Assembly (NCBI GenBank): GCA_028712365.1 | Contig: JAQTQE010000004.1 | Location: 13,806-77,805, forward strand | Reading direction: 5' to 3' | Length of the DNA: 64,000 bases | From: a bacterium | Lineage (GTDB): Bacteria; CAYTYR01; UBA6262 | In this document: piece after piece, positions 9,404 through 55,168 of the stretch | Numbering within the stretch: the stretch's first letter is position 1 | How the letters are laid out: each line of letters opens with the position of its first letter | Translations under genes and position numbers: made by a program | Notes under the pieces: generated by a model | Databases searched by the model: none | What the model was told of the DNA's origin: nothing | What the model saw: only the letters and a program-made list of their open reading frames with translations

Positions 9404-9554
9404 AGAACAAATTCTAAACAAATTCTCTGTTTTAAACATTTTAATTTTGAAATTTGGATTTGTTTACCTGTCCCCGCGTCTTTGATCCCGATAAATCTGG
9501 ATCAGCAGGGGGGAATTTAGAAATTAGATATTAGTATTTAAATTGTGAGGTTTT
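9404..9554. repeat. AT-rich intergenic element with terminal inverted repeats (aaattctaaac ... atttagaaattagatattag), ftsW|murG spacer
   Basis: Shares left and right arm motifs with 10641-10801 and 14961-15082. Confidence 0.5.
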
Positions 9555-10640: not shown

Positions 10641-10801
10641 TAAATTCGAAGCACTAATATAGAAATCCTAAACAAATACGAAATTCAAAGCTCTAAATTC
10701 TAAACGAATGCTATCTTTAAGACATCCTAATTTTGATTTTTTAATTTATTTAGTATTTAGAGCTTCGATATTAGAATTTGTATTTAAGAATTGGGGTAGT
10801 T
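10641..10801. repeat. AT-rich intergenic element of the same family, murG|murC spacer
   Basis: Left arm aaatcctaaacaaata / ctctaaattctaaacg. Right arm tttagtatttagagcttcgatattagaatttg. Confidence 0.5.
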
Positions 10802-12208
10802 ATGTTTAAAAAGTTCCAGCATATTCATTTTGTCGGTATTGGCGGCTCAGGGATGAGCGGCATAGCGGAGGTATTACTCAACCTGGGGTACAAGGTTTCC
10901 GGATCTGACTTGAAAGAAACTGAAACTATCAACCGGCTCAAGTCATTAGGCGGGGAAATTTTCATCGGTCATCGGGAATCAAATACTAAAAATGCCGATG
11001 TTGTAGTGGTTTCTACAGCGATCGATGTCAGCAATGTAGAGGTAACCGCGGCTATTCGTGATAAAGTTCCGGTTATCCCGAGGATAGAAATGCTGGCTGA
11101 GCTCATGCGGCTTAAATATGGCGTGGCCATAGCCGGCACGCACGGGAAGACCACGACGACTTCACTGGTGGCTCTGGTACTGGCCAAGGGCGGCCTGGAT
11201 CCGACTGCTATTATTGGCGGCAAACTGAATAATATCGGCAGTCATGCCAAGCTGGGACAGGGAGAATACCTGGTGGCGGAAGCAGACGAAAGCGACGGAT
11301 CTTTTCTGAAGCTGACCCCGACCATTGGCGTGATAACCAATATTGATAATGACCATCTTGATTACTGGAAATCGATCGAAAAATTACACCAGGGTTTTAT
11401 TGATTTTGCCAATAAAGTGCCATTTTATGGCAGTACCATAGTATGCGGAGATGATCCAGGCGTTCGCCAGATCATACCCCAGATCAAACGCCGGTATATC
11501 ACCTATGGTTTGGCAGTGAACCACATAAGTAATCACGACTTGATCGCTCAAAACATTGAGTTTTCCGGTTTTGGCACCCAGTTTGAAGTGGTTTATAATG
11601 AAAATACCCTGGGGCAAATTAAAATGCAGGTGCCGGGATTGCATAATGTGTATAATGCCCTGGCCGCTATTGGCGTCGGATTGGAGTTGGGCGTGCCTTT
11701 TGAAGTAATTAAAGAAGGATTGAGCGAATTCAGGGGCGTGGTCCGGCGGTTACAGTTAAAAGGAGAGATCAATAAGATCGTGGTTATGGATGATTATGGG
11801 CACCATCCGACCGAGATCAGGGCTACCCTGGATGCGATCAAGCGGTATTGGAAAGGGCGTCTGGTGGTCGTGTTCCAACCGCATCGTTTTTCCAGGACCA
11901 GACTGCTGATCGAGGAGTTTGGCAAAGTTTTTGGCCAGGCTGACGAACTTTTCGTCCTGGATATTTATTCTGCCGGGGAAAAATTCATTCCCGGTGTTGA
12001 TGCCCAGTTGCTGATCGATACTATAAAAAAGAACGGTTATAATAAAGTCCGGCATTTGCCCGGACGCAAGGAAGCAGTAGATTTCCTGGCCACTTACGTA
12101 AAGTCTGGCGACCTGGTCCTGACCCTGGGAGCCGGGGATGTCTGGAAGACCGGGGAAGAGTTATTAGAGCAGTTAGCCAGTGCTTCAAGAAATAGTACTA
12201 AGGTGTAA
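10802..12208 (+). CDS. murC: UDP-N-acetylmuramate--L-alanine ligase MurC
   Basis: N-terminal HFVGIGGSGMSGIAE and Mur ligase motif GTHGKTTTTS. I moved the start to the ATG at 10802, which follows a GGGG RBS. Confidence 0.9.
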   Translation: MFKKFQHIHFVGIGGSGMSGIAEVLLNLGYKVSGSDLKETETINRLKSLGGEIFIGHRESNTKNADVVVVSTAIDVSNVEVTAAIRDKVPVIPRIEMLAELMRLKYGVAIAGTHGKTTTTSLVALVLAKGGLDPTAIIGGKLNNIGSHAKLGQGEYLVAEADESDGSFLKLTPTIGVITNIDNDHLDYWKSIEKLHQGFIDFANKVPFYGSTIVCGDDPGVRQIIPQIKRRYITYGLAVNHISNHDLIAQNIEFSGFGTQFEVVYNENTLGQIKMQVPGLHNVYNALAAIGVGLELGVPFEVIKEGLSEFRGVVRRLQLKGEINKIVVMDDYGHHPTEIRATLDAIKRYWKGRLVVVFQPHRFSRTRLLIEEFGKVFGQADELFVLDIYSAGEKFIPGVDAQLLIDTIKKNGYNKVRHLPGRKEAVDFLATYVKSGDLVLTLGAGDVWKTGEELLEQLASASRNSTKV

Positions 12209-12211
12209 GTT

Positions 12212-12312
12212 TTAGAGGTAGGTTTGGTCTAAGGTCTGTTGGTGCTAGTCTCTAAACCACAAACTTTAGACATACTTCCATACCTACCTCTACAACCTTT
12301 ACCTATAACCAT
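12212..12312 (-). repeat. about 100-bp intergenic repeat element, copy A (inverted relative to copy B)
   Basis: The reverse complement of 12212-12312 aligns with 37646-37748 (shared ggtRaaggttgtagaRgtaggtatggaagta...ctaaagtttgtggttta...gaccaaacYtacYtcYaaaactta). Internal inverted symmetry. Confidence 0.7.
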
Positions 12313-14960: not shown

Positions 14961-15082
14961 GAGATACAAACCCGAAATCCTAATATCGAAATACTAAACT
15001 CTTTTGTTTTGAAATTTGAATTTTGAGATTATTTCGGATTTAGAAATTAGAATTTAGAATTTGACTGTAATGGAGGAATGAA
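14961..15082. repeat. AT-rich intergenic element of the same family, ftsQ|ftsA spacer
   Basis: Left arm ccgaaatcctaatatcgaaatactaaac. Right arm atttcggatttagaaattagaatttagaatttg. Confidence 0.5.
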
Positions 15083-16318: not shown

Positions 16319-16320
16319 AG

Positions 16321-16430
16321 CCGAATAAAAAGCGCGAATTTCTCGAATAAGTCCATAACCATTTAGTTTTTATTCGCGTAATTAGCTGTCCTGTCTATCG
16401 GTAGGCGGGCATTCGTGTAATTCGCATAAA
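16321..16430 (+). repeat. intergenic repeat family (CGAATAAAAG...TAATTAGCTRTCCTGYCTA..TAGGCRGGCATTCGYGTWATTCG), copy upstream of ftsZ
   Basis: Shares about 70% identity with 29409-29486, including a central palindrome (CCTGCCTAGGCAGG in the gmk copy) flanked by ATTCG-containing direct repeats. Confidence 0.65.
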
Positions 16431-16443
16431 AAGGAGTATCTTA

Positions 16444-20122: not shown

Positions 20123-20210
20123 ATATAGTTGATAGAACGCTGCGCTGGTAGTTGATAGTTGATCGAAAGAGCGGAAAAAAAACAGTCACTTAAAAAGATA
20201 AAACAGCTTT

Positions 20211-20245
20211 AATCCGCGTAATCATGTTCTATAATTCGCGTAATC
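20211..20245 (+). promoter_or_regulatory. tandem AATYCGCGTAATC motif pair (22-bp phasing) upstream of proC
   Basis: aatccgcgtaatc at 20211-20223 and aattcgcgtaatc at 20233-20245. Confidence 0.45.
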
Positions 20246-20303
20246 TATGTACTGATAATAGAAAATAGTTGTAACTACTTAGACTGTAGATAAGAGGTAA
20301 ACA

Positions 20304-22086: not shown

Positions 22087-22107
22087 ACATCCTAAAAAGG
22101 ATGTTTT
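22085..22107 (+). terminator. intrinsic terminator-like hairpin after the OMP gene
   Basis: AAACATCCT-AAAA-AGGATGTTT perfect 9-bp stem followed by Ts. Confidence 0.5.
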
Positions 22108-22142
22108 GATTACGCGGATTTCAGAAGAAGATTACGCGGATT
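22108..22142 (-). promoter_or_regulatory. tandem GATTACGCGGATT pair (reverse complement of the same motif, 22-bp phasing) upstream of mtnA
   Basis: gattacgcggatt at 22108-22120 and 22130-22142. Confidence 0.45.
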
Positions 22143-22161
22143 TAAATCGGAGAGAATATTA

Positions 22162-28567: not shown

Positions 28568-28645
28568 AATCCGCGTAATCCCGTCAGCGGCAGCAATGAT
28601 CACTGATAAGTTTATATTTACAAAAGCAATAATTAATTCAGTGTA

Positions 28646-29389: not shown

Positions 29390-29408
29390 TAAAAACGAAT
29401 GAAAGGAT

Positions 29409-29486
29409 ACGAATAAAAGCCGAATAGTATTATTAGCCTAATTAGCTATCCTGCCTAGGCAGGCATTCGCGTTATTCGTGAATTTT
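29409..29486 (+). repeat. same repeat family, copy upstream of gmk
   Basis: See 16321-16430. Contains the perfect 14-bp palindrome CCTGCCTAGGCAGG. Confidence 0.65.
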
Positions 29487-34767: not shown

Positions 34768-34836
34768 CCGTAAATTTAGCGAAGAAAAGAAGCGAAAAAC
34801 ACAAATAGATAAGAAGGTGAAGATATACGATTACAG

Positions 34837-34866
34837 AAGCAGGGTATTATGACCTGCTTTTTTTTA
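34837..34866 (+). terminator. intrinsic terminator after the PorV-like gene
   Basis: AAGCAGG/CCTGCTT stem followed by T8. Confidence 0.65.
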
Positions 34867-34895
34867 ATATTCGAGAAATTCGCTAAGGACAAACT

Positions 34896-37630: not shown

Positions 37631-37645
37631 GAGCAGTAGAAGTAA

Positions 37646-37748
37646 GGTGAAGGTTGTAGAAGTAGGTATGGAAGTAGGGCTAAAGTTTGTGGTTTAAGCC
37701 TAACACCCATTGACTTCAGACCAAACTTACTTCCAAAACTTACACCTA
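37646..37748 (+). repeat. about 100-bp intergenic repeat element, copy B
   Basis: See copy A. Lies between priA and a small ORF. Confidence 0.7.
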
Positions 37749-37792
37749 TTAACTGTTCCTCGTATTGACTGTACTTAAAAAAGGGAGCGGGT

Positions 37793-38355: not shown

Positions 38356-38384
38356 TTGACATTAGCGCCAAAATAGTATATATT
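38356..38384 (+). promoter_or_regulatory. near-consensus sigma70 promoter TTGACA-17-TATATT upstream of def
   Basis: -35 at 38356-38361, 17-nt spacer, -10 at 38379-38384. Confidence 0.55.
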
Positions 38385-38388
38385 TAAC

Positions 38389-38435
38389 AAGGCAATCTTC
38401 TATGACAATAGAGGATTGCCTTAAATTATTATTTT
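38389..38435 (+). promoter_or_regulatory. leader hairpin plus U-tract (attenuator/terminator-like) between promoter and def start
   Basis: AAGGCAATCTTCT / AGAGGATTGCCTT 13-bp stem with one mismatch, followed by aaattattatttt. Confidence 0.5.
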
Positions 38436-38957: not shown

Positions 38958-39914
38958 ATGCGTGTTATTTTCATGGGCACACCCGAATACGCGGTGCCTT
39001 TCCTGCAATCGCTCATAGGTCTGGGAGAAGAAGTAGTCGGCGTGGTAACTATGCCGGATAAGCCGGTAGGCAGGAAGCAGGAAATACAAGAACCGCCGGT
39101 AAAAGTATTAGCTAAAAAAAAGAATATCCCGGTATTCCAACCGGCAAAGATAAATGAAACCAGCTCTTTGGAAGCATTGAAAAATCTAGATCCTGACCTG
39201 GCAATAGTAGTTGGTTTTGGGCAGATACTGAGCCAAAAACTACTGGACTTGCCTAAATTAGGAACGATCAATGTGCATTTTTCATTATTGCCTAAATACC
39301 GGGGAGCCAGTCCGATCCAGGCCGCGATCATCAATGGCGAAGAAAAGACCGGCATTTCCACCATGTTCCTGGTTAAAAAACTGGACAGTGGCCCGGTGCT
39401 TTTGCAACAAGAGATCCCTATCGATAAAAAGGATACGGCTGTCACCCTGACTGCAAAACTGACCAAAGTTGGCGTGGAAGTATTAAAAGAAACCGTCTTA
39501 CTGATCAGAGAGGGTAAAGTCGCAGCAAAACCTCAGGATGAAGCGCTTTCTTCTTATGCTCCCCTGTTAGTTAAGGAAAGCGGCTTAATAGACTGGAAAA
39601 AGAGTTCAAAAGAATTATATGATTTTATCCGCGGGATGTATCCCTGGCCTGGCGCATTCACGTTTTATGAACACGGCGGCAGGAAACATATGCTGAAGAT
39701 CTGGGAAGCGGAGGAAATACCCAGGATAGAATTGGATCACAAAGCCGCGGCTAACGGAACGATCCTGGATGTGCTGAAAAATCATGGTTTTGCGGTAAAG
39801 TGCGGACAAGGTGGATTGCTTTTGACCAGGGTGCAATCTGAAGGCGGGAAAGTAATGCCAGCTTATAACTTTGTCATTGGTCATCATCTCAAGAAGGGTG
39901 ACAGGTTAGGATGA
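38958..39914 (+). CDS. fmt: methionyl-tRNA formyltransferase Fmt
   Basis: 318 aa. Formyltransferase N-domain (HFSLLPKYRGASPIQ). Confidence 0.92.
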   Translation: MRVIFMGTPEYAVPFLQSLIGLGEEVVGVVTMPDKPVGRKQEIQEPPVKVLAKKKNIPVFQPAKINETSSLEALKNLDPDLAIVVGFGQILSQKLLDLPKLGTINVHFSLLPKYRGASPIQAAIINGEEKTGISTMFLVKKLDSGPVLLQQEIPIDKKDTAVTLTAKLTKVGVEVLKETVLLIREGKVAAKPQDEALSSYAPLLVKESGLIDWKKSSKELYDFIRGMYPWPGAFTFYEHGGRKHMLKIWEAEEIPRIELDHKAAANGTILDVLKNHGFAVKCGQGGLLLTRVQSEGGKVMPAYNFVIGHHLKKGDRLG

Positions 39915-40420
39915 TAATGTGGCTTGTCTATAATATTTATTTTCCCTTAGTCCTGTTTACGGGGAAAATATTACGGCTCGCGCCTGATGAGACAGAACTT
40001 CACCTGGTTAAACTGAATAATCACTTGCGCGGTCAGGGAAAAGGAAAAGCAGAAAAGATTCTGATCCTGACTCCCAGTTGCCTGCAAAATAAAGACTGTA
40101 AGAATAATATAGTTGAGGATGCTAAAAACTGCCTGAAATGCGGTAAATGCAAAGTCAAAGATCTTTTAGCTCTAAGTGAAAAATACAAGATCAAACTGGT
40201 AGTAGCTACCGGAGGAAGATTAGCCCGGCAAGTTCTGTCCGAGACCAAGGCGGATACAGTGATCGCGGTGGCTTGTGAAAAGGAACTGGCCAGCGGTATT
40301 ATCGATACGTATCCGGTAGTAGTGCACGCAGTGGTCAATCAAAGACCTTTTGGCCCGTGCGTAAATACGGATGTGAACATACAAGAAGTTGAAAATATCA
40401 TTCAACGTATTTTAAAGTAA
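39911..40420 (+). CDS. Cys-rich hypothetical protein, DUF116-like
   Basis: 169 aa. N-terminal hydrophobic segment. CxxCxxC cluster (CLKCGKC). Family assignment is tentative. Confidence 0.45.
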   Translation: MIMWLVYNIYFPLVLFTGKILRLAPDETELHLVKLNNHLRGQGKGKAEKILILTPSCLQNKDCKNNIVEDAKNCLKCGKCKVKDLLALSEKYKIKLVVATGGRLARQVLSETKADTVIAVACEKELASGIIDTYPVVVHAVVNQRPFGPCVNTDVNIQEVENIIQRILK

Positions 40421-40450
40421 GAGGCAGGTCCAACGGTTAAAGGATGAACT

Positions 40451-40550
40451 CCGTTAGACCTCTAAAATAGGACAGCGGACCAAGTTAATCAGCCTATCTA
40501 TATTGCAATAGTTAATTATAATTTATTAATGATCCCAGGAGGTCTAACGG
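40451..40550 (+). promoter_or_regulatory. htpX 5' leader with 12-nt perfect anti-SD/SD long-range pairing (candidate RNA thermometer)
   Basis: CCGTTAGACCTC at 40451-40462 is the exact reverse complement of GAGGTCTAACGG at 40539-40550, which covers the GGAGG SD 2 nt before the ATG. A competing GGTCCAACGG lies at 40427-40436. Confidence 0.5.
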
Positions 40551-40551
40551 G

Positions 40552-41433
40552 ATGAATTCAATTAAAACTTTTGGTTTGATGTTTATATTAATTTTGCTAT
40601 TTACCTGGGCTGGCCGGGCGATCGGCGGCCAGCAAGGCATGGTGATGGCTTTTATCTTCGCTGTAGCGACAAATTTTTTCATGTACTGGTTCAGTGATTC
40701 CATAGTCCTGATGATGTACAAAGCTAAAATGGTCAAAGAAGAGGATGAAGCAGATCTTTATAAAGTGATCAGGAACCTAACGCTGAAAGCGAATCTGCCG
40801 ATGCCCAAAGTGTATATCATTGAAAATCCGACACCTAATGCTTTTGCCACTGGCCGGGATCCGCAACACGCGGCGGTGGCTGTCACCAGGGGTATCTTGG
40901 ATGTTTTAAACCAATCAGAACTGGAAGGCGTTATTGCCCATGAGCTGAGCCACGTGAAGCACCGGGACATTCTGGTGGCCACTATTGCCGCGACTTTTGC
41001 CGGGGCTATCACGATGCTGGCTAGGCTAGGACAGTTTGCCATGATGTTCGGCGGTATGGGCCGGGACAGGGATAATGATAGCGGCGGGGGATTGGGAGCG
41101 TTACTCATGATCATACTGGCTCCCCTGGCGGCGATCTTGATCCAGATGTCCATCTCCCGTTCGCGGGAATACCTGGCTGATGAAGGCGGAGCCAGGATTA
41201 CCGGACATCCTTTAGCCCTGGCCAATGCTTTAAAGAAACTGGCTGCTGCCGGCAAGCAGATTCCTATGGCGGCTAATCCCAGCACCGCGCATATGTTTAT
41301 CGTGAATCCTTTAAATGGTGAAGGCTTAGTCGGTCTCTTCAGTACGCATCCGCCGATGGCCAAACGCATCGAATTGCTGGAAAAAATGGAACAAGATCTG
41401 AAGATGTCAGGAATGCCGAAAATAATCACATGA
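40552..41433 (+). CDS. htpX: zinc metalloprotease HtpX (M48 family)
   Basis: 293 aa. [10 protein letters not shown] zinc motif. Transmembrane segments. Confidence 0.9.
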
Positions 41434-42374
41434 AAAAAATTACCCGCGTCAGCATATTCATAATTATTATCCTGGCCGCGTTATATTTCCTGGTTAATCT
41501 GGTAATGCTGCTTTTGATCAGGAACGACGCAGACCTGGAAGTGCCGGACCTGACTGGTATTACCGTATCTGAAGGATACGATAAATTGACCGCTCTCCAT
41601 TTGTTCCTGGTAAAGGATGGCGAACAATATAATGCCAGTATCCCAACCGGGGCGATAGTATCCCAAGTGCCATTGCCTGGCAGTAAAGTAAAAGCCGGCC
41701 GGAAAATAAAAGTCATCATCAGCCGTGGCTCGGAAAAGGTCAATACTCCGAATGTGACTGGCAAATTATGGAGAGACGCGGAGATAGTCTTGCGCCAGGC
41801 TGGTTTGATCATAGGGGAAACATTACGCGTTTACTCTAGCCAGGACCAGGATACAGTAGTGATTCAGGACCCGGTGGTGGGGACTTCCGTAGAAAAAGGC
41901 AGCAGCATTGGTCTTATTGTCAGTGCCGGGCCGATCGGGGAAGGGGCAGTAATGCCTAACCTGTTAAGCCGTCCTTATGAGCAAGTAGACCGCATCATTA
42001 AGATCATGGGCCTAAAAGTAGAGAAAGTAATGACAGAGGTCAATGATAATATTAATTCCGGCACAGTGGTTAACCAGTTGCCTGAAGCTAATTTACCATT
42101 GACTAAAGACACTGTAGTCTCACTGGTGATCAGCGTGAAATCAGGAGAAGAACTGGCCTCACCGTCCGTGAAAATAATCCATTATGAAGTCGCGCAGGGA
42201 TTATTGGAAAAAAGGGTGCGCATTACCGTCATTGATGAGCAGGGCGAAAGAGAAGTTTTTAATAAAGCGCAGGCTCCGGGCACAAAGCTGAATGTAGCGG
42301 CCAGCGTTAAAGGCAAGGCCAAAGCAAAAATATATGTCAATGAAGTTTTAGCCGAAGAAAGGCAGCTGCAATGA
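41430..42374 (+). CDS. membrane-anchored PASTA-repeat protein (no kinase or PBP domain)
   Basis: 314 aa. One N-terminal transmembrane segment followed by about four PASTA-like repeats. Located immediately upstream of rpe, as PrkC is in Firmicutes. Confidence 0.6.
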
Positions 42375-43039
42375 TCAGGATCGCGCCATCGGTTTTAAAT
42401 TGTGATCTTAGCTGCCTGGCCGCGGAAGTGAAGCTGCTGGAAGACGGTGGCGCGGATTGGTTGCATTTGGATGTGATGGATGGCGTATTCGTTCCTAATT
42501 TGACTTTTGGTCCGCCGGTGATCAAATCACTGCGTCAGAAAACGAAATTGCCTTTTGACGCGCACTTAATGATAGCTGACCCGGAACGGTATATCCAGGA
42601 CTATGTTGCCGCCGGTTGTGATATGATCACGGTCCATGCAGAAGCAGTGAAGAATATGGGCCGGACTATTGAGAAAATAAAAAAAGCGGGTTTAAAAGCC
42701 GGCATTTCCATAAAACCAAAGACCGCGCCGGAAGTGATCGGGCCTTGGTTGAAAAAGATTGACCTGGTGCTGGTGATGACGGTGGAACCTGGATTTGGCG
42801 GACAGGAATTCATGGCAGCCATGTTGCCAAAGATCAAGACCTTACGGCAGATGATCGGACAACAAAAGAGAAAAATTGAATTAGCTGTGGATGGCGGTAT
42901 CAGCGATAAAAATATAGCCCAGGTAGTTTCTGCCGGAGCTGATTTTGTCGTGGCTGGTAGTTTTGTGTTTAAAAGCCATAATGTAAAGAAAGCGATCCAG
43001 GTATTGAGAAGTAAGGCAGAAATAGGAATGGAAACATAA
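42371..43039 (+). CDS. rpe: ribulose-phosphate 3-epimerase Rpe
   Basis: 222 aa. [12 protein letters not shown]...HLDVMDG TIM-barrel motifs. Confidence 0.9.
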   Translation: MIRIAPSVLNCDLSCLAAEVKLLEDGGADWLHLDVMDGVFVPNLTFGPPVIKSLRQKTKLPFDAHLMIADPERYIQDYVAAGCDMITVHAEAVKNMGRTIEKIKKAGLKAGISIKPKTAPEVIGPWLKKIDLVLVMTVEPGFGGQEFMAAMLPKIKTLRQMIGQQKRKIELAVDGGISDKNIAQVVSAGADFVVAGSFVFKSHNVKKAIQVLRSKAEIGMET

Positions 43040-54589: not shown

Positions 54590-55168
54590 GTGAAGAAGGT
54601 ATTGTTTTTTGCATTGTTAATGCTCATGGCAAGTGTTCTGTGGGCTGAAGAGTCAACAGCCCAAGGCACAAAAAAGATTGGTATAGGATATTTTGACAAT
54701 GGCTTGGATCTTGTTTACTGGAAAAACGAGCATAAAGGGATTCAGGCTAATGTCAAGCTATCTGCAAGCAGATTGGGCGACGTATATGATTACGGTAATA
54801 CACAGAACAGTTGGGATTATCGCATCAGATTTGCATTTTTAAGAAAAGTAAAGGAATACGATTTTCTTAAGATTTCGATAGCTTATGGCATAAGCTGGAG
54901 TGATGTAAAAAGCGTACAGAATGCAGATTATTCAATGTACACAAGAACGGCAGTATTACAAGTCGGGCCTATATTTGAAATATTCATGCCTTTTTGTAAA
55001 AACTTATGTTTAGCCAGTGACTTGAAGCTTAATCTTGGCATTACCGTTAGAACTCACGACATACCTGCGAACATGACAACGACTCCAAGAAGGTCCAATA
55101 CCGAAAGTATATATTTTAGCGGCACAGGATTTACCTTGGATACGGTTTCAATAAGGTATTATTTCTGA
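54590..55168 (+). CDS. small outer-membrane beta-barrel protein
   Basis: 192 aa. GTG start. Signal peptide. Ends ...IRYYF. Confidence 0.5.
   Translation: MKKVLFFALLMLMASVLWAEESTAQGTKKIGIGYFDNGLDLVYWKNEHKGIQANVKLSASRLGDVYDYGNTQNSWDYRIRFAFLRKVKEYDFLKISIAYGISWSDVKSVQNADYSMYTRTAVLQVGPIFEIFMPFCKNLCLASDLKLNLGITVRTHDIPANMTTTPRRSNTESIYFSGTGFTLDTVSIRYYF

Follow-up and report, generated by a model that had tools for sequence, protein, structure and literature searches.

Gene organisation at the htpX start

The window (the whole 64-kb stretch of DNA that was analysed) carries the gene order def-fmt-DUF116-htpX-PASTA-rpe, a conserved housekeeping operon in this clade. The assignment of htpX is based on its M48 peptidase domain (Pfam PF01435, E = 1.9e-35), and the sources name the product HtpX. 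The DUF116 gene and htpX are separated by a spacer of 131 nt in which the following features were recognised:

39911-40420, + strand: DUF116 gene, the upstream cistron (from the ORF list; Pfam PF01976, E = 8.3e-44), with its stop codon TAA at 40418-40420
40425-40436, + strand: segment 1, a direct near-copy of the Shine-Dalgarno (SD) arm, CAGGTCCAACGG, which can pair with segment 2 and lies at the place of the putative ancestral SD
40443-40450, + strand: left flanking direct repeat GATGAACT, resembling a target-site duplication; it adjoins the left arm and holds the putative relic htpX start
40444-40470, + strand: putative relic mini-ORF (MNSVRPLK*), the codons 3-7 of which form the anti-SD arm
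40451-40462, + strand: segment 2, the left inverted-repeat arm or anti-SD, CCGTTAGACCTC, paired with 40539-40550 in the minimum-free-energy (MFE) and centroid structures
40463-40538, + strand: core or loop of 76 nt, AT-rich (30% GC), with an AT palindrome at 40506-40531 and TATAAT at 40517-40522
40539-40550, + strand: segment 3, the right inverted-repeat arm GAGGTCTAACGG, comprising the working htpX SD and the spacer up to -2
40551-40558, + strand: right flanking direct repeat GATGAATT, which adjoins the right arm and holds the functional htpX ATG (40552)
40552-41433, + strand: htpX, encoding an M48 zinc metalloprotease of 293 aa with an intact HELSH motif that aligns over its full length with those of its relatives (69-92% identity)

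The first-pass annotation had claimed a perfect 12-nt complement to the SD side of htpX, which was confirmed by direct reading and by a repeat search: 40451-40462 and 40539-40550 are exact reverse complements, 76 nt apart. The right arm covers the GGAGG SD at 40538-40542, and the G-U pairs 40450/40551 and 40463/40538 lengthen the predicted helix to 14 bp. The upstream near-copy of the SD side described there is also present, as GGTCCAACGG at 40427-40436 has one mismatch to GGTCTAACGG; over all 12 positions segment 1 differs from the SD arm at two.

The match between anti-SD and SD is not a product of chance. When the SD region was kept fixed and the upstream 146 nt were shuffled, a complement of at least 12 nt arose in 2 of 20,000 shuffles, and among the 63 SD-preceded ORFs (>=100 aa) of the window the next-longest SD complement comprises 8 nt. 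Within a set of 141 htpX loci a 12-nt SD complement was detected only in four contigs of the same species, the next best one having 9 nt. Since the same spacer sequence is present in four independent assemblies, an assembly artefact is excluded.

Predicted folding of the htpX leader

All statements on structure are thermodynamic predictions, for which partition-function folds were run at 15-80 °C. Both the MFE and the centroid structure pair 40450-40463 with 40538-40551 and thereby bury the SD, as had been supposed in the first-pass annotation. The stability of the 140-nt stretch as a whole is unremarkable (MFE -30.8 kcal/mol, z = -1.18), so that the signal stems from the closing helix rather than from the region overall.

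Temperature-dependent unmasking, which had also been proposed, is not apparent from the predictions. The mean pairing probability of the 12 arm pairs amounts to 0.999 at 25 °C, 0.996-0.997 at 37 °C and 0.993-0.995 at 45 °C, staying above 0.99 across 15-55 °C, and decreases to 0.98-0.99 at 60 °C and to 0.89-0.94 at 80 °C. The probability of the SD being unpaired merely rises from 0.009 at 25 °C via 0.015 at 37 °C to 0.022 at 45 °C. With a mean unpaired probability over positions -16 to +3 of 0.20, compared with 0.31-0.60 in 12 relatives, the RBS of htpX is predicted to be the least accessible one among 13 orthologous loci.

Segment 2 can pair either with segment 1 or with segment 3. According to the duplex energies the competing helix 1:2 (-15.4 kcal/mol) is about 10 kcal/mol weaker than the masking helix 2:3 (-25.1 kcal/mol). 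The suggestion that the upstream near-copy acts as an anti-anti-SD is borne out in silico for the nascent RNA, in which the 1:2 hairpin (-13.9 kcal/mol) is predicted to form first and to last until about position 40545 has been transcribed, but not for the equilibrium, where the probability of the 1:2 state is <=0.002 at 37-45 °C. Blocking the mini-ORF region in silico, as by a ribosome, raised the probability of an unpaired SD to 0.33-0.92.

Occurrence in related genomes

In 13 relatives (69-92% HtpX identity) the spacer between DUF116 and htpX comprises at most 22 nt or the genes overlap. The nine sequenced loci among them (79-92% HtpX identity) show the stop codon TAA, 0-22 nt containing GGAGG, and the ATG, and lack the hairpin. 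The gene table of P0015 indicates a gap of 9 nt, the sister lineage P0003/L162 has a spacer of 17 nt, and the deeper relatives (69-70% identity) have a gap of 4 nt or an overlap with unchanged gene order. The 131-nt spacer was found only in the four assemblies of the same species, which are 98.3-99.8% identical overall. Judged by this comparison, the long spacer is the derived, lineage-specific state.

Within the species the spacer varies at a single position (40514, A/G, in the loop), and htpX contains one SNP as well. The spacer diversity of 1 SNP in 131 nt is of about the same order as the 0.1-0.8% in most neighbouring genes, and these SNPs (one in the spacer, one in htpX) are too few to serve as a test for selection.

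One other long spacer was detected, that of L003, which folds into an unrelated, very stable hairpin of 165 nt (z = -6) and whose RBS is not notably occluded (accessibility 0.59). It is of independent origin because the spacer of the sister L168 comprises 16 nt.

Transcription of the operon and expected effect on htpX

A strong sigma-70-like site is located upstream of def (TTGACA-17-TATATT, 38356-38384), with 11 of the 12 positions agreeing with the consensus. The promoter scan did not reveal any promoter-like site in the DUF116-htpX spacer, and no intrinsic terminator was found after DUF116 or elsewhere in the spacer. We therefore infer that both arms are co-transcribed, and they should share the def-fmt-DUF116-htpX read-through mRNA.

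On this mRNA the 14-bp helix of about -25 kcal/mol would bury the SD from -14 to -1. Thus, htpX would be uncoupled from DUF116 and its translation strongly throttled whatever the temperature, which would presumably lower the level of the HtpX protein. Residual expression may have two sources, namely the brief co-transcriptional period in which the anti-SD is held in the weaker 1:2 hairpin, and ribosomes that, having completed DUF116, initiate anew at the relic ATG and melt the anti-SD arm.

If the prediction holds, a small insertion changed in a single step how a conserved operon gene is translated, breaking the coupling, donating a new SD and installing a strong anti-SD at once. The locus may hence be of use as a case study for the origin of cis-regulatory RNA structures; it does not represent a new regulator class.

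Origin of the long spacer

The best reading of the locus, to which we assign a probability of about 0.55, is that of a young, species-specific, MITE-like insertion which masks the SD. Several traits of MITEs as defined in PMC3184786 were found. Terminal inverted repeats enclose a short non-coding core, the total of 12 + 76 + 12 = 100 bp lying under the limit of 200-400 bp. The arms are directly flanked by the direct repeats GATGAACT (40443-40450) and GATGAATT (40551-40558), a putative target-site duplication that matches at 7 of 8 positions (8-bp consensus GATGAAYT; p = 6e-4 for two random 8-mers matching at 7/8 or better). Empty sites are present in the related genomes, yet the predicted pre-insertion sequence differs from these in the old SD. 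Neither the 64-kb window (blastn-short) nor 169-172 fetched loci (~0.9 Mb) nor viral contigs yielded a second copy, so that the multicopy nature of MITEs is not apparent from this small amount of sequence.

Further searches of the window gave no other copy of the element for the arm pattern at up to two mismatches and no enrichment of GGTCTAA and TTAGACC (4 and 1 occurrences where 4.5 and 3.7 are expected), while the arm motif matched six times (2.7 expected), three of these matches being the present locus. Neither a transposase nor an IS end with such a terminus was evident in the window. The element is not similar to the window's intergenic repeat families (best local score 21, compared with 38-115 within the families), and its core resembles neither the 5' coding sequence of htpX nor any other part of the window or of the fetched loci.

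The remains of the old gene start appear to lie upstream of the element. The relic ATG is located 23 nt after the DUF116 stop codon, similar to the true ATG in the relatives (16-22 nt after), and in a MAFFT alignment the true htpX starts of the relatives fall onto the relic start. Segment 1 aligns to the SD of the relatives (...GCAGGAGGA...), and a copy of its quality is expected in shuffled 30-nt stretches with p ~1e-3. The relic and the htpX start form a direct repeat, D1, of 20 nt at 75% identity. The relic peptide MNSVRPLK, which occurs in one species only, is homologous to the N-terminus of HtpX, MNSIKTF, consistent with a relic.

According to the insertion reading, about 100 bp (40451-40550) would have landed just after codon 2 of htpX, in an operon in which htpX is otherwise tightly coupled to DUF116. 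The duplicated target would have regenerated ATG-AAT-T in front of the remainder of htpX, and the old start would have been left as an 8-codon relic ORF. Since the right terminal repeat happens to supply GGAGG 9 nt upstream of the ATG, htpX stayed translatable. With the arms being terminal repeats, the complementarity between anti-SD and SD would be built in and not shaped as a sensor. We infer transposition as the origin. Against it, segment 1, a direct near-copy of the right arm outside the element, is not predicted by simple transposition, and 7 of the 12 positions of the left arm agree with htpX codons 3-7. Moreover, a strong GGAGG as in all relatives is missing from the predicted empty site (GAGGCAGGTCCAACGGTTAAAGG-ATG), so that a further change of the old RBS must be assumed.

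The element shares several traits with the bacterial MITEs and hairpin repeats (Correia/CREE, ERIC, RUP, BOX, REPIN; PMC3184786): it comprises about 100 bp of non-coding DNA with terminal inverted repeats and a short direct repeat, lies between presumably co-transcribed genes, is predicted to form a stem-loop on the mRNA and is confined to one lineage with empty sites in relatives, and the window itself holds bona fide repeat families of such size. Many MITEs form a long hairpin (PMC3184786), whereas the stem here is limited to the termini of 12-14 bp, which enclose an unstructured core of 76 nt; further differences are the single copy seen, the extra direct copy of the right end outside the element and the right end doubling as SD. 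The Neisseria REP2 and Borrelia IR repeats likewise supply an RBS or start context to the downstream ORF (PMC3184786). However, REP2 lacks terminal inverted repeats, contains a promoter and its own ATG and is present in 14-26 copies (PMC3184786), whereas at the present locus a promoter is not apparent and the ATG would derive from the duplicated target.

A local rearrangement seems rather unlikely as the origin. It would require a template-switch (fold-back) replication error which produced a direct-inverted-direct triplication of the htpX RBS region plus filler, and would lead to the same SD-occluding helix on the mRNA. The arrangement of one 10-12-nt motif in three copies in just this order is in line with such an event, as is the fact that relic and real start directly resemble each other over about 26 nt, more than the 8-bp duplication accounts for (z = 3.3 for the part comprising SD and start). 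The sequence searched contained no other copy of the element, and the L003 junction independently gained a repeat-rich hairpin from start-like motifs. On the other hand, no source of the 76-nt core could be detected in the surrounding DNA, and perfect arms adjoining an 8-bp direct repeat represent a textbook signature of transposition. Furthermore, a 3-nt deletion, a 6-nt insertion and substitutions would have to be assumed for the left copy, with the inverted copy remaining perfect.

Possible function as a translational switch

It appears fairly improbable that the three segments constitute a working leader-ORF or kinetic translational switch, the perfect complementarity of which was shaped or kept by selection. 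In such a switch, pairing of segment 2 with segment 1 would leave the SD free and pairing with segment 3 would mask it. The masking helix would be opened by ribosomes that terminate at the end of DUF116 and start again on the 8-codon mini-ORF, and the synthesis of HtpX would be set by the upstream translation flux or by ribosome stalling.

The mini-ORF (ATG AAC TCC GTT AGA CCT CTA AAA TAG) is located 108 nt upstream of htpX in the same frame and overlaps the SD-sequestering arm, as is expected of an attenuator. All pieces are in the right order, with 1:2 predicted to form first and 2:3 once the SD arm exists, and the predicted release of the SD upon occlusion of the mini-ORF region agrees with this function. 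Segment 1 is non-random (p ~1e-3) and is not explained by a plain insertion, the arms have 0 mismatches in 12 positions whereas the flanking repeat and segment 1 each diverged, and the element is fixed across four samples of this species. However, the leader ORF does not possess a functional RBS: AAAGG directly adjoins its ATG (spacing 0) and GAGG at 40421-40424 is 19 nt off. Further points against such a switch are the scarcity of the 1:2 state at equilibrium, the lack of conservation beyond one species, a within-species diversity too low to judge by, and the independent long spacer of L003 which leaves its own RBS unmasked.

In leader-ORF attenuation (cat-86, cmlA, ermC) and in the "Min Jou" pairing of the MS2 coat-replicase region, a downstream SD is paired to an upstream translated segment. 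Similarly, the partner of the htpX SD lies inside a short ORF, a ribosome there would expose the SD, and a third segment offers an alternative pairing. Unlike the leaders of cat-86, cmlA and ermC, the leader ORF in front of htpX has neither a functional RBS nor a recognisable stalling peptide and is not conserved, and the loop of 76 nt differs from the compact hairpins of those leaders and of MS2.

Both readings might be combined, in that leftovers of the insertion were co-opted as a newborn three-segment riboregulator, which we regard as quite unlikely. The old RBS would then have been remodelled into an anti-SD decoy and the old start kept as the 8-codon leader ORF. If true, HtpX synthesis would report on ribosome flow or on stalling where the def-fmt-DUF116 message ends, and the locus would be a natural case of leader-ORF attenuation born de novo from mobile DNA. 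Being restricted to one uncultured Elusimicrobia-like species, the feature is of limited reach unless experiments bear out the switch reading.

Transcriptional readings

The element could alternatively act as an insulator with a promoter of its own, giving htpX independent transcriptional control: TATAAT in the core would drive a short htpX transcript without the anti-SD, while the read-through mRNA would be silenced. This hexamer (40517-40522) is a perfect -10 motif, located 30 nt upstream of the ATG in the core of 30% GC, and the sole SNP within the species lies just upstream of it. Repeats carrying promoters and RBSs are known, e.g. Neisseria REP2 and the Correia elements (PMC3184786). Nevertheless, no -35 motif matching at more than two of six positions was found at a spacing of 16-18 nt, and the scan, which detected the def site with its 11 of 12 consensus positions, reported no such site in the spacer. 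A promoter function is thus improbable.

It is very improbable that the repeats represent a DNA operator for a transcription factor, e.g. a heat-shock repressor, although three non-random copies of a 10-12-bp motif surround the htpX start and the half-sites resemble CIRCE by eye at 7 of 9 positions (TTAGACCTC compared with TTAGCACTC). The half-sites are spaced by 76 bp instead of the 9 bp in CIRCE, the motif is not above chance elsewhere in the window and it is absent in the relatives. A search of the window for the CIRCE/HrcA operator TTAGCACTC-N9-GAGTGCTAA gave no match at <=3 mismatches.

Temperature sensing

The least probable of all readings is the RNA thermometer put forward in the first-pass annotation, in which heat shock would melt the SD helix and so free htpX translation. 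htpX is heat-inducible in E. coli, and the SD and the region to -1 are sequestered by an intramolecular leader helix in front of the gene. However, known thermometers rely on weak, mismatched helices, and marginal melting across the physiological range is not predicted for the perfect 12 + 2 bp helix at this locus, which has -25.1 kcal/mol and keeps a pairing probability of at least 0.98 up to 60 °C. The ROSE, fourU and cyanobacterial hsp17 thermometers, which likewise occlude an SD in cis before a stress-associated gene, have short or mismatched helices that open at about 30-45 °C and are conserved among orthologues, whereas the present helix is predicted to survive above 60 °C and is restricted to one species.

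No relevant Rfam family, including ROSE and fourU, was matched by the region at E values up to 10 or by the whole window at gathering score, and the helix is absent from the 13 relatives as well as from 137 further htpX loci. A literature search for htpX together with "RNA thermometer" gave no paper describing an htpX thermometer, its four hits naming the two terms without treating the topic, and since def-fmt-DUF116-htpX-PASTA-rpe is a housekeeping operon, nothing marks htpX as heat-regulated. The first-pass interpretation is thus partly supported: the feature is real, yet it is very probably not a heat-sensing thermometer and is not conserved. For genome scans this is a caution that SD complementarity beside a "stress" gene does not equal a thermometer.

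Further observations

Several apparent similarities were rejected. A match to the arm with one mismatch at 55044 is located inside a coding region and has no partner arm, and an apparent match to the element at 49.6 kb (z = 4) represents coding sequence and an AT-rich coincidence. A tandem duplication of the htpX 5' end in units of 108 nt was discarded (filler against htpX coding sequence z = -1.3, unit against unit z = -0.03), the filler not being similar to htpX codons 7-30.

The attC sites of integrons have the order R'' (RYYYAAC) ... L''/L' ... R' (GTTRRRY), comprise 55-140 nt and contain extrahelical bases. By eye, GTTAGAC and GTCTAAC can be read in the arms, yet within the 100-bp unit they follow the order R'...R'', and the correctly ordered pair of segments 1 and 2 spans 32 nt without L boxes. 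The heptamer match is of low information and is treated as a coincidence.

In line with the insertion reading, this genome accumulates hairpin elements about 100 nt long that lie between genes of like direction. One family is represented by two copies of ~88% identity at 12.2 kb and 37.7 kb, and further families exist.

Recurrent masking shared with L003 was rejected on account of the different hairpin, the open RBS and the independent origin. The hairpin at the L003 junction is rich in repeats with motifs resembling the start region of L003 itself, and GGAGGTCTAAC is shared between the present spacer and that of L003.

An inverted repeat covers the htpX Shine-Dalgarno sequence

The htpX gene follows a DUF116 gene within a co-directional gene cluster.

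Features of the htpX locus
38459, forward strand: def
38958, forward strand: fmt
39911-40420, forward strand: DUF116 gene
131 nt: spacer between the DUF116 gene and htpX
40552-41433, forward strand: htpX (Pfam Peptidase_M48, E = 1.9e-35)
downstream of htpX, forward strand: PASTA-domain gene, then rpe

Read directly from the sequence, positions 40451-40462 of the spacer (CCGTTAGACCTC) are the exact reverse complement of positions 40539-40550 (GAGGTCTAACGG), and the htpX Shine-Dalgarno (SD) sequence is GGAGG at 40538-40542, followed by the ATG at 40552. Both the perfect 12-nt complement covering the SD and the near-copy of the SD side further upstream (GGTCCAACGG at 40427-40436), which had been noticed in the first-pass annotation, are present. 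With the SD region fixed and the upstream sequence permuted, a complement of at least 12 nt was obtained in 2 of 20,000 trials. The runner-up among the 63 SD-preceded ORFs of the window has a complement of 8 nt, and among htpX loci of other bacteria (n = 141) one of 12 nt occurs only in same-species contigs. The SD-masking helix is not due to chance.

Distribution among relatives

A scan of genome collections and protein searches placed the window among uncultured Elusimicrobia-like MAGs. In the relatives with readable junctions (L001, L002 and L161-L169; 79-92% HtpX identity) the TAA of the DUF116 gene is followed by 0-22 nt containing GGAGG and then by ATGAATTC, and the gene table of a further relative (P0015) gives a gap of 9 nt. 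Two deeper relatives (69-70% HtpX identity) retain the order def-fmt-DUF116-htpX-PASTA-rpe with a 4-nt gap or overlap at the junction, and the sister of the window on the HtpX tree (P0003/L162) has a spacer of 17 nt. The 131-nt spacer was found only in four same-species assemblies (three other samples; 98.3-99.8% identical overall), and the structure is therefore real and no assembly artefact. Since the long spacer is confined to one species and the relatives have short ones, the sequence comparison indicates that the insertion is recent and derived and that it separated two genes which were tightly coupled ancestrally. Within-species diversity is low.

The same-species spacers differ at a single loop position, 40514 (A in the window, G in the three other assemblies), which lies 3 nt upstream of a TATAAT in the AT-rich core; the exchange turns TTAATTATAAT into TTGATTATAAT. 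Furthermore, rpe (42371-43039) is 9.6% divergent between the window and the same-species contig L170, compared with 0.1-0.8% in the neighbouring genes, suggesting a recombination tract or an imported different allele at rpe.

Another Elusimicrobia lineage (L003) has its own long DUF116-htpX spacer of about 210 nt (JACRDM010000108.1, 2235-2400). It harbours a 165-nt hairpin, near-perfect and composed of GGCACAAAG / CTTTGTGCC repeats, which folds at -76.5 kcal/mol (z = -6) and holds a relic SD and ATG in its left arm. Since this hairpin is unrelated to the element in the window and was gained independently, and since it leaves the ribosome binding site (RBS) unmasked, nothing indicates that masking was selected for repeatedly. 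Both loci carry the 11-mer GGAGGTCTAAC immediately ahead of the start codon, though the insertions are phylogenetically independent.

Anatomy and proposed origin of the insertion

Directly outside, the two arms are flanked by GATGAACT (40443-40450) and GATGAATT (40551-40558); a match of 7/8 or better is expected by chance with p = 6e-4. The right flanking copy holds the working htpX ATG and the left one a relic ATG, located 23 nt past the DUF116 stop codon, which equals the distance of the real ATG in relatives, and in a MAFFT alignment the true htpX starts of the relatives fall on this relic ATG. It opens an 8-codon ORF (MNSVRPLK*, 40444-40470) that shares the htpX frame and lies 108 nt upstream of the gene; codons 3-7 of this ORF are the anti-SD arm. 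The 76-nt core between the arms (30% GC) shows no relation to the 5' coding sequence of htpX, thus a simple 108-nt tandem duplication was rejected; nothing similar to the core was detected in the window or among the fetched loci.

In having terminal inverted repeats around a short non-coding core, a direct repeat at its flanks and empty sites in related genomes, the element matches the definition of miniature inverted-repeat transposable elements (MITEs; PMC3184786). On a MITE origin the complementarity between anti-SD and SD would follow automatically from the terminal repeats. The insertion presumably occurred after htpX codon 2, and the gene would have survived because the duplication restored ATG-AAT-T and the right terminal repeat supplied a GGAGG at 9-nt spacing.

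Eight spacers of 122-151 nt separate co-directional genes in the window, and several carry hairpin-forming repeats that can be grouped in families.

Repeat families in the window
12203-12306 (12.2 kb), forward strand: hairpin element of about 105 nt, copy 1
about 37640-37750 (37.7 kb), reverse strand: the same element, copy 2 (the two about 88% identical)
9404-9554, 10641-10777, 14961-15082 (9.4, 10.6, 15.0 kb): second family, in three spacers (122-151 nt) that separate co-directional cell-wall genes
16319-16443, 29390-29477, 34768-34895 (16.3/29.4 kb): further family of intergenic repeats
20123-20303, 22087-22161, 28568-28645 (20.1/22.1/28.6 kb): further family of intergenic repeats

The element of about 105 nt, which is bounded by imperfect inverted repeats (about 25 nt; AGGTGTAAGTTTTAGAGGTAGG / CCTACCTCTACAACCTTTACCT) and folds at -47 kcal/mol (z = -3.7), is a bona fide MITE-like family of this genome; one copy occupies a spacer, likely that of the murC-murB junction, past the gene that ends at 12208. 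The second family shares AAATTCTAAAC / TTTAGAATTT units and long AT-rich hairpins (local alignment scores of 38-51 vs a background of about 17), and of the further families one carries the motif TAGCTRTCCTGYCTA..GGCAGGCATTCG and another ATCCGCGTAAT / ATTACGCGGAT units. These families show that elements of about 100 nt are readily accommodated between operon genes in this genome, in agreement with an insertion. In the other inspected spacers the hairpin does not include the downstream SD, htpX being the exception.

The htpX element is not a member of any of these families by sequence, and it is the single known copy in the window and the fetched loci. Moreover, segment 1 (40425-40436), which nearly repeats the right arm in direct orientation and does so more closely than expected at random (p ~1e-3), lies outside the element, 7/12 positions of the left arm agree with htpX codons 3-7, and the reconstructed empty site is devoid of the strong SD of the relatives. 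Since these features do not fit a simple insertion, a local direct-inverted-direct rearrangement via template switching stays a live alternative; possibly the old RBS was later remodelled so that it acts as an anti-SD decoy. Whichever origin holds, the RNA is affected in the same way.

Other identities were rejected. Integron core-site heptamers have the consensus GTTRRRY and RYYYAAC, and the arms contain GTTAGAC and GTCTAAC (40453-40459 and 40542-40548), with GTCCAAC in segment 1. The pair is in the wrong order for attC, the rightly ordered pair is too short and L boxes are missing, so the match is treated as presumably coincidental. The half-sites agree with CIRCE at 7/9 positions with a spacer of 76 nt vs 9 in CIRCE, and no CIRCE site was found within the window. 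A transcription-factor operator was dismissed as there are no further sites.

Predicted folding and response to temperature

Both the minimum-free-energy and the centroid structures join the two arms, two G-U pairs lengthening the helix to 14 bp. The stability of the whole 140-nt region is no better than that of shuffles (z = -1.18), thus the signal is the closing helix itself. Partition-function folds covered the range of 15-80 C in three contexts (155, 221 and 351 nt).

Pairing probability, averaged over the 12 arm pairs
25 C: 0.999
37 C: 0.996-0.997
45 C: 0.993-0.995
60 C: 0.98-0.99
80 C: 0.89-0.94

The unpaired probability of the SD rises from 0.009 at 25 C to no more than 0.022 at 45 C. 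The first-pass annotation had proposed a candidate RNA thermometer or riboregulator masking the SD: its observation is confirmed and the masking is supported in silico, the pairing of both segments having a probability of at least 0.993 at 25, 37 and 45 C, but the temperature response is not. As the predicted pairing is flat with temperature, the arm:arm duplex energy is -25.1 kcal/mol (vs -15.4 when segment 1 competes for the left arm) and no Rfam family matches the spacer region, the feature is not predicted to act as a thermometer; no description of an htpX thermometer turned up in the literature search.

The near-copy had been suggested to compete as an anti-anti-SD. In folds of the growing transcript its hairpin with the left arm (-13.9 kcal/mol) is indeed kept until about position 40545 is transcribed, when the masking helix takes over, but its equilibrium probability is at most 0.002 at 37-45 C. 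Among 13 orthologous loci, the htpX RBS of the window has the lowest predicted accessibility (0.20 vs 0.31-0.60, as the mean unpaired probability over -16..+3), and forbidding pairing over the mini-ORF footprint raised the unpaired probability of the SD to 0.33-0.92.

Proposed effect on htpX expression

A strong sigma-70-like site (TTGACA-17-TATATT, 38356-38384) was detected upstream of def. Since the scan that picks this site revealed no promoter-like site in the spacer, which also has no terminator, and since the TATAAT at 40517-40522 is not preceded by an acceptable -35 element, both arms should be located on a single operon mRNA.

The insertion probably broke the coupling between DUF116 and htpX and throttles htpX translation irrespective of temperature. 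Leakage may occur in the co-transcriptional window before the masking helix forms, or through ribosomes re-initiating at the relic ATG. The locus could also be a genuinely regulated leader-ORF or kinetic switch, which, if newly born, would be the more interesting case of regulatory innovation; however, the mini-ORF lacks a usable SD and the decoy hairpin is scarcely populated at equilibrium, making such a switch rather improbable. The locus is best filed as a single small inverted-repeat insertion creating a cis anti-SD helix, of a known kind.

A 15-bp hairpin (38389-38422) was furthermore found in the presumed def leader after the near-consensus sigma-70-like promoter (38356-38384).
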